Assembly: GCA_021513695.1 (NCBI GenBank)
Contig: CP084166.1
Location: 192,001 to 256,000 of the forward strand
From: Candidatus Heimdallarchaeum aukensis
Lineage (GTDB): Archaea > Asgardarchaeota > Heimdallarchaeia > Heimdallarchaeales > Heimdallarchaeaceae
Direction: 5' to 3'
Length of the DNA stretch: 64,000 nt
The notes beneath the pieces are model-generated. The model was not told the DNA's origin and did not search any database. It was given only the letters and a program-made list of their open reading frames with translations. The position numbers and the translations under genes were made by a program. How positions within the stretch are numbered: the first letter of the stretch is position 1; the number at the start of each line of letters is the position of its first letter. Positions 10,046 to 56,967 of this stretch are shown one piece after another.

Positions 10046-10969
10046 CTAATCATTTTTTATGCTTTCGTCTAGGTTGGTAGCTTTTTCTAATCCTCTATAT
10101 ATCTTCCATCTTCTATCGATATATTCTTTAAGTTTTTCAACTTGTTCAGGGGTTATATTTTTGAATCGTCCTTGTTTTGACAAAAATTCTTCTAATCCTG
10201 TAAATTTAGGTTTTCTGTTAATTTTCACTCTTCCATTTTCATATTCAATTAGTAGCCAATAACCTGATTCAACAGCTTCTTTTGCTAATTGGGGACCTAA
10301 ATGAGTTGGTACTTTCCATCCTGGAGTGCAGATAGACAAAACTTCTATATATCTAAATCCCTTCATCTTCTTTGCTTTTTCTATTTTATTGATAAAATCT
10401 TGAATGTAAGCTGTTGAAGCAGTAGCTACATAGGTAGCTTCATGTGCAATAAGTATCCTTGGAATATCTTTTGGAAACCATTCATTTCCTTTCGATTTTC
10501 CTTTAACAGGAGTTGTTGTAGACCACGAACCATAAGGAGTCAATCCTGAAGCTTGAATTCCTGTATTCTCATATGCTTGATTGTTGTAACAAATATACAA
10601 TATATTTTCATCTCTTTGAGCTGCTCCAGATAGAGCTTGTAGACCTATATCTGCCGTACCTCCATCTCCAGCCATCCCCAAGACTACTATATCTTCCTTG
10701 TTTTGAGCTTTTAAAGCTCTTGAGATCCCAGTAACAGTTGAAGCGGTATTCGCAAACTGTAGATGGAAATAAGGAACATCCCAGTTAAGATTAGGAAAAG
10801 TTCCTCCAAAAACACTTAGACAACAAGGGGGAACACTCACAATTGTTTTTTTCCCTAAAATACGCATTACGTTAATAGCGATATTTGACGCCATACAACC
10901 TGCACAAGCACTGTCTCCGCTTACAAACTCTGCTCTATCTGGAAGATCTTTTAATCTCATAGCTTTCAC
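10046..10969 (-). CDS. 2-oxoacid:ferredoxin oxidoreductase, beta (TPP-binding) subunit
   Basis: GDSACAGCMAS near the N-terminus and GMAGDGGTADIGLQALSGAAQR ... YNNQAYENTG (TPP-binding GDG...N motif); 307 aa. A candidate TATA (atttaaaa on the minus strand, 11003..11010) lies about 35 nt upstream. Confidence 0.9.
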   Translation of the reverse strand: MKAMRLKDLPDRAEFVSGDSACAGCMASNIAINVMRILGKKTIVSVPPCCLSVFGGTFPNLNWDVPYFHLQFANTASTVTGISRALKAQNKEDIVVLGMAGDGGTADIGLQALSGAAQRDENILYICYNNQAYENTGIQASGLTPYGSWSTTTPVKGKSKGNEWFPKDIPRILIAHEATYVATASTAYIQDFINKIEKAKKMKGFRYIEVLSICTPGWKVPTHLGPQLAKEAVESGYWLLIEYENGRVKINRKPKFTGLEEFLSKQGRFKNITPEQVEKLKEYIDRRWKIYRGLEKATNLDESIKND

Positions 10970-53802: not shown

Positions 53803-53916
53803 AAGTAATGGTTTTCTAACTTGTATTTATTTATTTTCAAACAAAATTTTGTTAACCTAATTTTTGGAAAAAAGAAAGACTAATTAAGACAATGAATCTT
53901 TCGAAGTTAGACAAAG

Positions 53917-54798
53917 ATGGTTAGACGACCAAAAAAAGAATACTGGCTTGAAGAAGAAGCAGAAAAAATGATTTTAGAACTAGAAAATGGAGCAAAGTTA
54001 AGAATACTTTATTTTAAAGCAAAAAATAAAAGCAAAGAGACTTTAAATTTAGTGTTCTATTCTGGTTTTATTTCTTATGTTTATATCTGGGAAAAAGCTA
54101 TAGAAAAACTCCGAGAAAAGCATGATATTTACTTTATAGAAACAAGAGAAAAAGAATTTTCACGCTTTCCTAAAGATGAAGTAGTATATAACACAGAAAC
54201 TTTAGCTGAAGATTTCGTTTTGGTTCTTAAAGAATGTAAAATAATAGGGCATGATTTAGAAAATACTGTATTTATAGGTTCTTCAATAGCTTCTGTAGCT
54301 ATGCTTGAAGCAATGGGAAAATATGACATTAATCCTCTGATATCTTTCCACTCTTCTCCTCAAATGAAATATACAGCAGCTGACAGAAGAAAAAATATGC
54401 ATATAGTAGGAAGAATACCCTATTTTATTGTTCTTCTCATTAAACCACTGATTTTCTTCTTTTATGGTTTGAAATTTAGAAAGGATAGAGATTCTGCAAG
54501 AAGAAGAAAACATACATTAGCCAGATTGCTGCAACCTTCTCAACAAAAATGGATGAGAAAAGCTAAAACATTTGCAGCACCATATGAAGTAGATAAAGAA
54601 GCTCTAAAAAAGATTAAGTCCCCAGTAATAATAATTGGTGCAAAAGAAGATCCAGAACACGATGAAGAAGAAGTACAAAAACTAATAAATCTTATTCCTA
54701 GGAGCAAGTTCAGAAAAGTTAAAGAAAAAGCAGATACTCACAACGAAGTCTTAGCTGAGATAGTTTTTGAAGAATTAAGCAAATTAAGGAAAAAGTGA
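53917..54798 (+). CDS. Alpha/beta-hydrolase fold protein (GSSIA nucleophile elbow variant)
   Basis: VFIGSSIASVA, IKSPVIIIGAKEDPEH, ADTHNE. Hydrophobic lid IPYFIVLLIKPLIFFFYGL. Same layout as 49154..50062. Confidence 0.6.
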   Translation: MVRRPKKEYWLEEEAEKMILELENGAKLRILYFKAKNKSKETLNLVFYSGFISYVYIWEKAIEKLREKHDIYFIETREKEFSRFPKDEVVYNTETLAEDFVLVLKECKIIGHDLENTVFIGSSIASVAMLEAMGKYDINPLISFHSSPQMKYTAADRRKNMHIVGRIPYFIVLLIKPLIFFFYGLKFRKDRDSARRRKHTLARLLQPSQQKWMRKAKTFAAPYEVDKEALKKIKSPVIIIGAKEDPEHDEEEVQKLINLIPRSKFRKVKEKADTHNEVLAEIVFEELSKLRKK

Positions 54799-54931
54799 AA
54801 AAAAGAACTTTGCCCTAAATAATCAGAATAGTGTTTAGGAAATGATTCACTTTATTTTTAGACAAATCTCGCAAATATTTTTATAATAGTCAATTTTTTT
54901 TTAAGATATAACTCTTAAAGGCGAATTTTGT

Positions 54932-55565
54932 TTGAATATGCGAGAAAATGAAGAAATAGAAATTAAAGGAAAAAGTAAAATTAGAAGAATAGCATCTCTT
55001 GATTTTCAAAGAGGATTGGCAATTTGGATGATGGTTTTTTTACACGTCTGGAATCATATTTACGACTTTAGTTGGATAGATTTAGGAACAATATTTCAAG
55101 AAGCAAACTTTCTTTTTGGAATTTGGGTAATTTTCTGTGGATTTTTCGGCGGGTGGGCTGGATATTTCCTTTAATTTCTTCAACAGTTAACGCTTTAGCT
55201 TCTGTGAAAAAAGTAAGAAAAAGTGGAAGTGCTGAAAGAGTTTTAGCAAAGCAAATTCTTACAGGAATAGGGGTTCTTATAGCTGGAAGATTGACAGAAG
55301 CTTTTGGATACTACGGTTATTTTGAAGAGTCTTTAGGTCAGGAAAATCACTTTTTTCGATAGAAACTTGGACCGATACACACTACTACTCTTTTATTTGG
55401 AGAAGAATCTTTATGGTTGAAGCTCTTCAGATTATTGGCTGGGCTATGATAATTAACGCTGTTATTCAATTTTTCTTGATCAAGAATGGAGGAGCAGAAA
55501 AAACGGTAAGAAACTTGATGATTTATGCTTCTTTAGTTGTTCTTGTTGCTACTCCTTTCATATGA
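54932..55565 (+). pseudogene. Frameshifted and probably truncated DUF1624/HGSNAT-like acyltransferase-type membrane protein gene
   Basis: Three consecutive frames carry one continuous membrane-protein sequence. Frame 2 runs 54932..55174 (DFQRGLAIWMMVFLHVWNH...GGWAGYFL*). Frame 1 runs to 55362 (...PLISSTVNALASVKK...GVLIAGRLTEAFGYYGYF...). Frame 0 runs to TGA 55563..55565 (...WTDTHYYSFIWRRIFMVEALQIIGWAMIINAVIQFF...). The shifts lie near 55165-55175 and the T6 run at about 55351. Assembly errors are not excluded. Confidence 0.6.
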
Positions 55566-55632
55566 GTTGAAATTTTACTTAATTTCTTCAGGACTCTACC
55601 CAACCAGTCAACAAACATATCGAAAGTTGTGA

Positions 55633-55758
55633 GGACTGGGTTAAGAGAACATGAAAGACACAGTCTTAAGTGAGTTCTCTAAAGGGTTCATCTCCTGATC
55701 CCGGGCACTCATCACTCCCACATGGAAGACCGGGTGTCGTAGGAATGAAACCTACGTC
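55633..55758. ncRNA. GC-rich, non-coding, hairpin-rich island (candidate structured RNA or element remnant)
   Basis: Hand count gives 62 G+C in 126 nt (35 of 60 in 55683..55742), well above the AT-rich flanks. All six frames are closed. Nested stem AGAGAAC(55644-50)/GTTCTCT(55674-80) encloses AAGAC-ACA-GTCTT (55655-67). Hairpin CGTAGG-aatgaaa-CCTACG at 55738..55756. CCCGG/CCGGG pairing at 55699-55735. Identity and strand are unknown. Confidence 0.25.
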
Positions 55759-56043
55759 TTTAAGCATATAGATCAAAACACTAGATAAATGAGAATTGAA
55801 TATATAAAGACTGCAGAAAAGTTGTGACACTTCCCAATATCGTGTATTCTTTATTAATCCAAATGTGCTTCTGGTTGTTCTTGGTCTAATAACTCCACAA
55901 ACTAAAAATTTAGTTCTTTACGTAAAAAAGTATTTCATCAAAACTAAACTTCAGAGAGATGCTAAAATAATGTGGAATGGTTAAATTATAAAGAACTTTC
56001 CAGATCCTAACTCTTTTTTTCTTTTAAAAAAATGAGAAAAAGA

Positions 56044-56856
56044 TTACTCTTTAACTGCTTTTAAGGCAAATAAAAGAGGAAAATCAATTTTTTCATCTTT
56101 GAAGTACCAATATCTGTCTTCATGTTGTACTAAAAAAGGAAATTGCTTAAATTCACTAAACGGATATTCGTTAAACAATTCAATTTTTAGTCCTTCTTTT
56201 ATCAAAGAATTGAGGATTTCACTTATAGTATGCATCCACTCGTAAGTCTTTAAATGTTCGATTTTTTTATCAGAATCAGTGTAAGTGTATTCAGAATCAA
56301 ATTCCATTGCTTCTTTTGAGAAATAACTGTATCTAATTTTTAGTTCTTTTTCATTTTCATCATCAAAGACATGTGAGAGAGGGTGCGATTCTACAATTAG
56401 AAAATTTCCACCTTTTCTTAAAAATTTGGAAATTATTTCTGCCCATTTTCTTATGTCAGGTAACCAAGGTAGAACACCATAAGTAGTGAAAACAATATCA
56501 AACTTTTCTTTTAGAAGCTTATCAAGATCATAAATGTTTGCACAAATAAATTTAGCACGAACATTAATTTGTTCACTTAATTTTTTGGCAAAGGTAATAG
56601 CTTTTTCAGAAAAGTCTACTCCAGTCACTTGAGCTCCCATTCTAGCTAAAGAAAGGGTATCCATTCCAAAGTGACATTGTAAATGGAGTATTTTTTTTCC
56701 TTTTATATTTCCAAGCAGTTCAAGCTCAACTGAGTGTAAAGAGTTTTTTCCTTTTAGAAAACCCTCTAAATCATAGCTTTTTGATTTTGAATGAATCTCA
56801 ACAAGTTCATCCCATCGCTTTTTATTTGTTTCCATAAATTCTTTGTTGCTATCCAT
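56044..56856 (-). CDS. Class I SAM-dependent methyltransferase
   Basis: KILHLQCHFGMDTLSLARMGAQVTGVDFS (motif I and the acidic post-I residue), FDIVFTTYGVLPWL, GGNFLIVESHP. Confidence 0.75.
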   Translation of the reverse strand: MDSNKEFMETNKKRWDELVEIHSKSKSYDLEGFLKGKNSLHSVELELLGNIKGKKILHLQCHFGMDTLSLARMGAQVTGVDFSEKAITFAKKLSEQINVRAKFICANIYDLDKLLKEKFDIVFTTYGVLPWLPDIRKWAEIISKFLRKGGNFLIVESHPLSHVFDDENEKELKIRYSYFSKEAMEFDSEYTYTDSDKKIEHLKTYEWMHTISEILNSLIKEGLKIELFNEYPFSEFKQFPFLVQHEDRYWYFKDEKIDFPLLFALKAVKE

Positions 56857-56967
56857 TATGGAAAACTGAAAAGTTAGCTAATAAGAATTTCTATATATTA
56901 TCTTTTACAATATTTTAAATAGAAGTTTTTTCTAAATAGGCAAAAAGCAAATACCTACGAAGAGTAG

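Follow-up and report, generated by a model that had tools for sequence, protein, structure and literature searches.

A probable MITE-like repeat with a conserved, foldable GC-rich core in the remains of a DUF1624/HGSNAT-like gene of Candidatus Heimdallarchaeum aukensis

Miniature inverted-repeat transposable elements (MITEs), such as the SM1-SM4 elements of Sulfolobus and the Correia elements of Neisseria, are non-coding units of a few hundred base pairs (bp) with terminal inverted repeats and a short flanking duplication, which are dispersed in several copies, differ in presence and absence between close relatives, and insert in or beside genes, where they supply stop or start codons. Elements of the IS607 family move by means of the serine recombinase TnpA through a circular intermediate with a 2-bp crossover core and, to our knowledge, have not been described with inverted termini, and the DDE-type elements of the IS5 family (IS427/ISL2-type) and of the IS630 type make 2-4-bp duplications, typically TA or TNA (ISfinder summaries). 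Here, we analyse a stretch at positions 55562..55938 of a 64,000-nucleotide (nt) window of the Candidatus Heimdallarchaeum aukensis genome (contig CP084166.1; positions are those of the window unless a locus is named), which lies within the remains of a DUF1624/HGSNAT-like gene and contains an island of high G+C. A first-pass annotation of the sequence had preferred to read this island as a stand-alone structural RNA and had named a small non-autonomous insertion as the alternative. We propose, with a probability of roughly 0.85, that the stretch is a copy of a small non-autonomous, MITE-like element of ~375 bp that circulates in Heimdallarchaeum-type genomes. It seems to be an element of an ordinary kind, belonging to a family that is apparently undescribed.

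The element spans 377 nt between its inverted termini (375 nt net inserted; plus strand), is non-coding, and was found by BLAST and nhmmer at eight loci, the window included, with 85-96% identity and fixed boundaries (55560/55562..55938). An exact 20-mer of the island gave three matches in the complete chromosome of Candidatus Heimdallarchaeum endolithica PR6 (CP084167.1) and one chance match in a Leifsonia genome, an overlapping 20-mer matched four metagenome contigs, and a further copy (L012) was reached through one predicted peptide on a contig of a metagenome-assembled genome (MAG). The copies comprise L004, L005 and L006 in PR6 and four metagenome or MAG loci, namely L008, L009, L010/L011 and L012, among which L005 and L009 are complete and L008 carries a 33-nt internal deletion. 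In PR6, the copies at L006 7670-8000 and L004 1-328 lie on opposite strands and both sequences end at element position ~47-49, so that they may be adjoining stretches, that is, a head-to-head pair of truncated copies, and PR6 therefore has two or three loci. Within the 64 kb, BLAST of the island against the window gave no second copy, and an nhmmer search with the family profile gave no diverged copies in the ~208 kb of window and comparison loci; viral contigs yielded chance GC-rich matches at most, and phage and plasmid collections no match to the element.

The copies lie in unrelated contexts, in both orientations relative to the neighbouring genes, and inside genes or at gene ends. In the window and at L005 the upstream genes run into the left end of the element and terminate at its TGA, at L006 the AT of the ATG of a 178-amino-acid (aa) gene is provided by the right end, and at L012 (6216-6330) the element adjoins the ATG of a signal-peptide open reading frame (ORF; MRKQIAKICGLLLILVF...) whose frame differs from that of the SBP_bac_5 gene downstream. 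Comparison of the copies revealed no conserved ORF, the frames being broken by indels, and the longest frame of the element gave one 47-aa match among 5.8 billion proteins, which is a spurious ORF in another copy. In addition, because the element is a repeat, the contigs of three short-read assemblies of the same lineage stop inside it: L001 at 55674, L017 at 55724, and L018, a Logan contig with 100% identity to the window, at 55910.

An exact empty site is present in PR6. A 20.8-kb segment of its chromosome (L016), reached via an orthologue (P0015, 93% identical) of the methyltransferase encoded downstream of the element, aligns to both flanks (53835-55563 and 55937-56905) and lacks exactly the element, which gives the net insertion of 375 nt. 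The PR6 site reads ...TTTCATAT/CAAGAC... (in fuller form ...GCTACTCCTTTCATAT/CAAGACTAAACTTCAAAGAGATGCTAAAATAA...), so that the sequence without the element is TTTCATATCAAAAC, and the filled site of the window reads ...TTTCATAT(GAG...TTTCAT)CAAAAC... (in fuller form ...CCTTTCATAT(GAGTTG...GTATTTCAT)CAAAACTAAACTTCAGAGAG...). The dinucleotide AT, placed by the alignment of window and PR6, is found singly in the empty site and twice in the window, with a left copy at 55562..55563 (no strand assigned) and a right copy at 55937-55938 bordering the element. AT flanks every copy; it is preceded by T in five of six copies and followed by G in seven of eight, the exception being the C of the window.

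Both ends of the element carry ATGAG-N7-TTTACGTAA, a bipartite inverted repeat that is imperfect. The left repeat, ATGAGTTGAAATTTTACTTAA, occupies 55562..55582 on the plus strand with the motif ATGAG-N7-TTTAC(G/T)TAA, and the right repeat, TTACGTAAAAAAGTATTTCAT, defined by the copy sequences and the PR6 alignment, occupies 55918..55938 on the plus strand and ends in the right AT copy. Each terminus matches the reverse complement of the other at 14 of 21 positions, in the window and in the consensus; counted by eye, copies with the right end CTCAT and the left end ACGTAA reach up to 16 of 21. Random pairs of 21-mers from the window give a mean of 6.1 matches, with a probability of 7e-5 for at least 15. 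If joined, the ends would read CTC-AT-GAG, an 8-bp palindrome (in longer form ...GTATTTC-AT-GAGTTGAAA..., with the palindrome CTCATGAG). One further copy bears on the termini, namely L010/L011 (L010 3835-3974; L011 1778-2154), a single locus recovered from two metagenomes and 99.8% identical over 1.9 kb, in which the terminal TATGAG and an internal CTCATA bound an inversion of the left ~150 nt. In L011, the order is flank-TATGAG-TGCCCGGG...(left 150 nt as reverse complement)...CAACTCATAACTCCC, and as L010 has the same junction in a contig from a different metagenome, the inversion is probably real rather than an assembly artefact. In the window, the corresponding breakpoint is an internal CTCAT pseudo-end (55708..55712, plus strand), the reverse complement of the terminal ATGAG.

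In its length of 375-377 bp without coding capacity, its dispersed copies, its terminal inverted repeats and its flanking AT with filled/empty polymorphism between close relatives, as well as in supplying stop and start codons to adjacent genes, the element resembles the MITEs, and the small non-autonomous insertion that the first-pass annotation had offered as an alternative is borne out by the repeat copies, the PR6 empty site, the inverted termini and the contig breaks. It differs from them in that a parent insertion sequence (IS) with matching ends was not found in the ~208 kb, that the flanking repeat is 2 bp only and always AT, that the termini are imperfect and bipartite, and that it contains an unusually GC-rich, conserved and foldable module in a genome of 30% GC.

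The gene into whose tail the element is inserted is a pseudogene. Its 5′ part, ~210 codons at 54932..55561 on the plus strand, was delimited by Pfam, by homologues, and by a three-way alignment of the window with L001, a 10.5-kb contig of a related MAG (98% identical to the window), and with the orthologous region of PR6 (L016; ~89-91% identical), which also served to place the indels. The frame-repaired translation of 54932..55565 matches the Pfam family HGSNAT_cat (PF07786) with 23.2 bits against a cut-off of 22 and has 13 homologues at 43-57% identity (P0001-P0013; heimdallarchaeal homologues at 53-56%) plus a 91%-identical fragment (P0001), so that the DUF1624/HGSNAT-like identity given in the first-pass annotation stands. 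The homologues all come from Heimdallarchaeota/Heimdallarchaeaceae MAGs wherever the source names the organism, which points to a Heimdallarchaeum-type Asgard archaeon. The same annotation had read the gene through two changes of frame to a stop at 55565; both changes, the stop, and the first site were recovered, whereas the T6 run at 55351 is not the second site, because the alignment locates the missing G at ~55325 (TATTTT-GAAGAG versus TATTTTGGAAGAG, after a T4 run). This second 1-nt deletion occurs in the window only, the first, at ~55170 (TTCCT-TTAATT versus TTCCTCTTAGTT in PR6), is common to the window and L001, and PR6 has a separate 1-nt deletion at ~55084. Programmed -1 frameshifting at 55170 was considered and rejected, as the context CCUUUAA does not qualify as a slippery heptamer and PR6, with an extra base there, reads through.

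The frameshifts are accompanied by a much larger loss. Full-length relatives, ~480 aa as estimated by joining the two halves of the gene at locus L003, run ~270 residues further past ...ATPF(M)WNWIDNL..., and the C-terminal 266 aa gave no tblastn match in the entire window; ~250 codons, including most transmembrane segments, are gone in both the window and PR6. Of the PF07786 gene, ~210 codons survive at the N-terminal end and 10 at the C-terminal end, with two 1-nt deletions. The true 3′ remnant, (S)KLNFREMLK and a stop, lies at 55939..55970 on the plus strand and was placed by contiguity in PR6 and by alignment to the L003 C-terminus: PR6, which lacks the element, reads ATPFISRLNFKEMLK and a stop (in a longer stretch ...LVVLVATPFISRLNFKEMLK and a stop) contiguous with ...ATPFI, and its SRLNF aligns to the extreme C-terminus of the full-length L003 homologue (...NRNSRLNFDRILNN...; ...APNRNSRLNFDRILNN...). 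Because the element-free PR6 has the same loss with the C-terminal SRLNF in frame, the alignments indicate that the common ancestor of the window and PR6 lineages already had the in-frame loss of ~250 codons. Because PR6 also carries its own frameshift, the gene, to judge from these sequences, was dead before the element was present, and the lineages then gained their own 1-nt deletions. The earlier suggestion that an insertion killed the gene is thus not supported; the insertion took at most the last 10 codons off an already crippled gene, with a TGA stop (55563-55565) made of one target base, the T of the AT core, and two element bases. Likewise, the hydrophobic frame at 55811..55984, suggested before as a possible displaced 3′ end of the gene, is not that end, because it is mostly element sequence (up to 55938), seen at unrelated loci, and the true remnant is in another frame.

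Within the element, the GC-rich island stands out from a window of 30.2% G+C. The first-pass hand count of 62 G+C in the 126 nt at 55633..55758 proved correct and is the maximum among 126-nt counts over the 64 kb (mean 38.1, standard deviation 6.5); this is the sole GC peak outside ORFs of at least 200 codons, six other peaks lying inside frames of 200-404 codons, and the stretch is, as had been noted, closed by a stop in six of six frames. By GC, conservation and consensus fold, we delimit a core at 55630..55762 (plus strand) with a closing stem and four hairpins (55644-55680, 55684-55702, 55704-55738 and 55738-55756, plus strand), and both hairpins described before, AGAGAAC/GTTCTCT around AAGAC-ACA-GTCTT and CGTAGG-N7-CCTACG, are present. 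Over the eight copies, 15 of 126 columns vary in the core versus 60 of 251 elsewhere, so that the core is about half as variable (Fisher p = 0.006, a contrast that ignores the shared ancestry of the copies), and the left 39 nt of the element, with 4 variable columns, are likewise conserved. On the plus strand, the majority consensus of the core forms the closing stem GAAGAC/GUCUUU around the four hairpins at -44.6 kcal/mol, with z = -3.3 (1 of 200 shuffles), and on the minus strand z is -1.7; the consensus-like L005 copy has z = -3.15, with its minimum free energy structure identical to the centroid, and the window copy folds no better than dinucleotide shuffles (z = -1.42 on plus and -0.88 on minus over 191 nt, -1.46 and -0.67 over the 133-nt core). 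RNAalifold gives the same core architecture as the consensus fold. In seven copies it saw no covariation (covariation term +0.76; two pairs with double changes versus ~10 broken cells), at very low power because these copies are 89-96% alike. The copies themselves look neutrally decaying, with deletions of 33-37 nt and stem-breaking substitutions; therefore, structural constraint acts on source copies at most.

Comparison with known RNAs gave no family for the core. With Rfam 15 at gathering thresholds no family was found in the whole 64 kb, permissive thresholds gave nothing above chance-level matches, both in the region (E 0.07-10) and in the consensus-like L005 copy, and ARAGORN found no tRNA or transfer-messenger RNA here and no tRNA in the whole 64 kb. 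The first-pass annotation had also pointed to a UGA on both strands of the first hairpin as reminiscent of a K-turn; however, the 3′ UGA (AAGTGAG) occurs in the window only, the other hairpin-bearing copies having AATTAAG, which extends the helix. A kink-turn or C/D box motif was accordingly rejected, as AAUUAAG pairs canonically outside the window, L012 is without the hairpin, and snoRNA matches in Rfam have E ~6-10. According to Wu et al. 2022 (PMC8813620), no 5S rRNA gene could be predicted in their circular genomes of Heimdallarchaeum; 5S rRNA was rejected as the identity of the core by the lack of an RF00001 match at E <= 10, the four-hairpin architecture and the mobility of the sequence. 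Downstream of the core, TTTATATA (TATATAAA on the plus strand) at 55801..55808 on the minus strand is a perfect match to the archaeal TATA-box consensus, present in most copies, and could be a putative promoter inside the element.

The search for a mobilising partner covered the window and 18 loci (~208 kb in all) and found no autonomous element that shares these termini; when up to 3 mismatches to the terminal motif were allowed, in order to reach a longer element, only chance matches came up. A ~1-kb IS481-like IS with a 312-aa rve-type transposase occurs at two PR6 loci that carry the small element (L005 6122-7138 and L006 6059-7070; 97.5% identical to each other), and a decayed fragment of a similar transposase adjoins the element at L008 128-421. 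This IS was nevertheless rejected as the partner, since its ends (TGTxTACTCAA) are unrelated and it makes 16-17-bp duplications. An IS607-like element splits the orthologous DUF1624 gene at L003 5730-8895 (GCA_030613185.1, JAUWMK010000151.1), with CC on both sides, 6-7 nt upstream of the junction of the window, and both gene halves are still readable. Its products are a 204-aa MerR/Resolvase TnpA and a Cas12f1-like_TNB (TnpB-type) protein that, at 740 aa, is unusually long; derivation of the small element from this IS607-like element was rejected for want of any DNA or protein similarity. A 153-aa Cas12f1-like_TNB (TnpB-type) fragment is also present in PR6 (L016 998-1459), in sequence unrelated to the small element. 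Two other modes were set aside on the junctions and ends: a Helitron/IS91-type insertion between A and T, as the termini are unlike TC...CTRR, and a TA duplication of the IS630/Tc1 kind, which is incompatible with the junctions.

Several observations weigh against the MITE-like interpretation. The copy number is modest, with eight loci only, the termini are imperfect, and the autonomous relative is missing from the sequence searched. There is a single empty site, equally compatible with insertion in the window lineage and with precise excision in PR6. With respect to the core, single copies carry ~10 stem-breaking changes and almost no compensatory ones, and the conservation contrast bears the limit of shared ancestry given above. 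Finally, the junction of the old deletion (TTCAT(A)/TCAAGA) and the insertion point (CAT-AT-CA) lie within ~2 nt of each other (window 55560-55563; L016 ~10919-10920), and a plain history of deletion first and random insertion later does not account for this coincidence. A history of insertion at T-AT-G in an intact gene, an adjacent 750-bp deletion, and excision in PR6 would account for the atypical C after the right AT as well as for the coincidence; alternatively, the deletion came first and the element then inserted at the scar.

Could the island instead be a host gene for a structural or regulatory non-coding RNA that was duplicated in the genome, as the first-pass annotation preferred? 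Its standing as the GC-richest stretch and only non-coding GC peak of a 30% GC window, its hairpins and its well-folding consensus would speak for such a gene, but a host gene is hard to reconcile with the sharp boundaries, inverted termini, flanking AT and exact empty site, with copies decaying in unrelated contexts, in both orientations and within or at the ends of genes, or with the absence of any Rfam, tRNA or 5S match, and we consider it very improbable. With the island lying inside a sharply bounded, multi-copy, insertion-polymorphic element, the stand-alone RNA of the first-pass annotation is not supported as stated, and neither an Rfam family nor, among seven similar copies, covariation was seen. 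The L003 element raises another reading, in which the stretch is the decayed end of an IS607/IS605-type IS with TnpA and TnpB that once split the gene, and the island is a remnant of its omega-RNA: the L003 insertion sits 6-7 nt from the window junction, and the window gene has lost everything from that point to the last 10 codons. However, the two elements share no DNA similarity, neither the window nor any copy has a remnant of TnpA or TnpB, the core dinucleotide is AT here and CC/GG in L003, and the small element has defined ends of its own and moves as a 375-bp unit, which makes this origin improbable. That the frameshifts are sequencing errors in one intact ORF, with the island as a coding or intron-like insert of a live gene, hardly deserves credence: the second frame change is indeed found in the window only, after a T4 run, but the first deletion recurs in the independent assembly L001, a different deletion is present in PR6, which was sequenced by Nanopore and Illumina (Wu et al. 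2022, PMC8813620), the shared loss of ~250 codons in both species already refutes an intact ORF, and the island is closed in six frames and intergenic elsewhere.

A further possibility would refine rather than replace the MITE-like reading, namely that the element carries a functional plus-strand RNA, either a guide or scaffold resembling the omega-RNA of TnpB or the bridge RNA of IS110, or a small RNA. The consensus core folds significantly with the plus strand favoured (z -3.3 versus -1.7) and several G-U pairs, it is better conserved than the AT-rich arms despite AT mutational pressure, TATA-like sequences lie within the element, and TnpB-type genes are present in related genomes (L003, L016). 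Against such an RNA, even the consensus-like copy has no Rfam match, RNAalifold shows no covariation in the seven similar copies, and L012 has wholly lost hairpin 1; moreover, 70 nt separate the core from the left end and 180 nt from the right end, whereas an omega-RNA scaffold and guide would adjoin the flank, the insertion sites share only ~T-AT-G, whereas a bridge RNA would demand an 11-14-nt target, and the sequence does not resemble the 3′ region of the L003 tnpB. We regard a functional RNA as possible, although on balance unlikely. Its most specific form, in which the core is a transposon-borne RNA used by the enzyme acting in trans to mobilise or retain the element, as an analogue of omega- or bridge RNA, and the activity of the element, through an adjacent deletion and then a precise excision, also caused the loss of the ~250 codons, is more doubtful still.

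Returning to the MITE-like reading, we propose that the element would integrate at an AT dinucleotide in the preferred context ~T-AT-G, leaving AT on either side. The element has no protein of its own, and its enzyme must therefore be supplied in trans; this enzyme would probably recognise the bipartite termini ATGAG-N7-TTTACGTAA. It could be a DDE-type transposase that makes a 2-bp target duplication, or a site-specific (for example serine) recombinase with a 2-bp AT crossover core, for which the circular junction would be ...CTC-AT-GAG...; the pattern of a single AT in the empty site and flanking AT in the filled site is equally compatible with an IS607-type crossover core and with a DDE 2-bp duplication. 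At the present locus, the element would have entered the tail of a DUF1624/HGSNAT-like gene that was missing ~250 internal codons, given it a TGA and severed its last 10 codons. The GC core may be a conserved internal module that serves the element, either as a structured transcript or as structured or protein-bound DNA used for mobilisation, and we infer that it matters to the element rather than to the host.

The known families can be compared on this basis. As in IS607 elements, the dinucleotide is single in the empty site and present on both sides when filled, the empty site is exact, the target is weakly specified, the joined ends would make a palindrome suited to a dimeric recombinase, one copy is inverted between a terminal and an internal ATGAG motif, and IS607-like elements occur in related Heimdallarchaeia (L003); in contrast, the core is AT and not GG/CC, the ends are dissimilar to those of the L003 element, the only IS607-like element compared, and no recombinase gene is linked to any copy. 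With the palindrome-associated elements (PATEs) and omega-RNA modules of IS200/IS605, the element shares its non-autonomous nature, a palindromic TTTACGTAAA a few nt inside each end, the lack of a long target duplication and a structured internal sequence; however, it lacks the conserved 4-5-nt target on one flank, having a weak preference on both flanks (T before, G after), its core lies away from the ends, unlike the omega-RNA of TnpB, and no tnpA/tnpB remnant is present. The IS5-family (IS427/ISL2-type) and IS630-type DDE elements are alike in the 2-bp duplication, and the termini would start with GAG if AT is the duplication, but it is AT that is duplicated here, and no such transposase lies near any copy. 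The inversion in L010/L011 suggests enzyme action at the ATGAG/CTCAT motifs and, together with the palindromic joined ends, might tip the balance slightly in favour of a site-specific recombinase.

Non-tandem repeats make up 3% of the circular Heimdallarchaeum genomes at a 95% identity cut-off and are tied to 11 transposase/integrase families, and the abundant transposase-linked repeats are described there with MITEs unmentioned (Wu et al. 2022, PMC8813620); a 2026 survey also reports an unusually high repeat burden in H. endolithica (PMC13343696). A full-text literature search combining Asgard with "miniature inverted-repeat" returned nothing relevant and no report of small non-autonomous elements for Heimdallarchaeum. 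In annotations, this locus should be entered as a pseudogene that contains a MITE-like repeat rather than as an RNA gene or a live gene with frameshifts. A family with a clean empty site offers a handle on an active transposase or recombinase in the closest archaeal relatives of eukaryotes, and the GC module, conserved and able to fold, provides a concrete candidate for either a structure acting in cis or an RNA carried by the element. Were the core such an RNA used in trans, the element would be a parasite that carries RNA but no protein and exploits an RNA-guided or RNA-dependent system of transposition.

The alignment of L016 to the window also revealed two other differences between PR6 and H. 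aukensis. PR6 has ~1.8 kb extra between the HlyIII and alpha/beta-hydrolase-like genes (L016 12644-14447 versus window 53803-53916), with a nucleotidyltransferase/HepT-like pair, a toxin-antitoxin-type module, where the flanking genes are adjacent in the window. On the other side of the element, PR6 has ~3.7 kb extra between the methyltransferase gene and the gene of a 465-aa membrane protein (L016 6185-9952 versus window ~56896-56905), which includes a 369-aa leucine-rich-repeat protein and several small ORFs.

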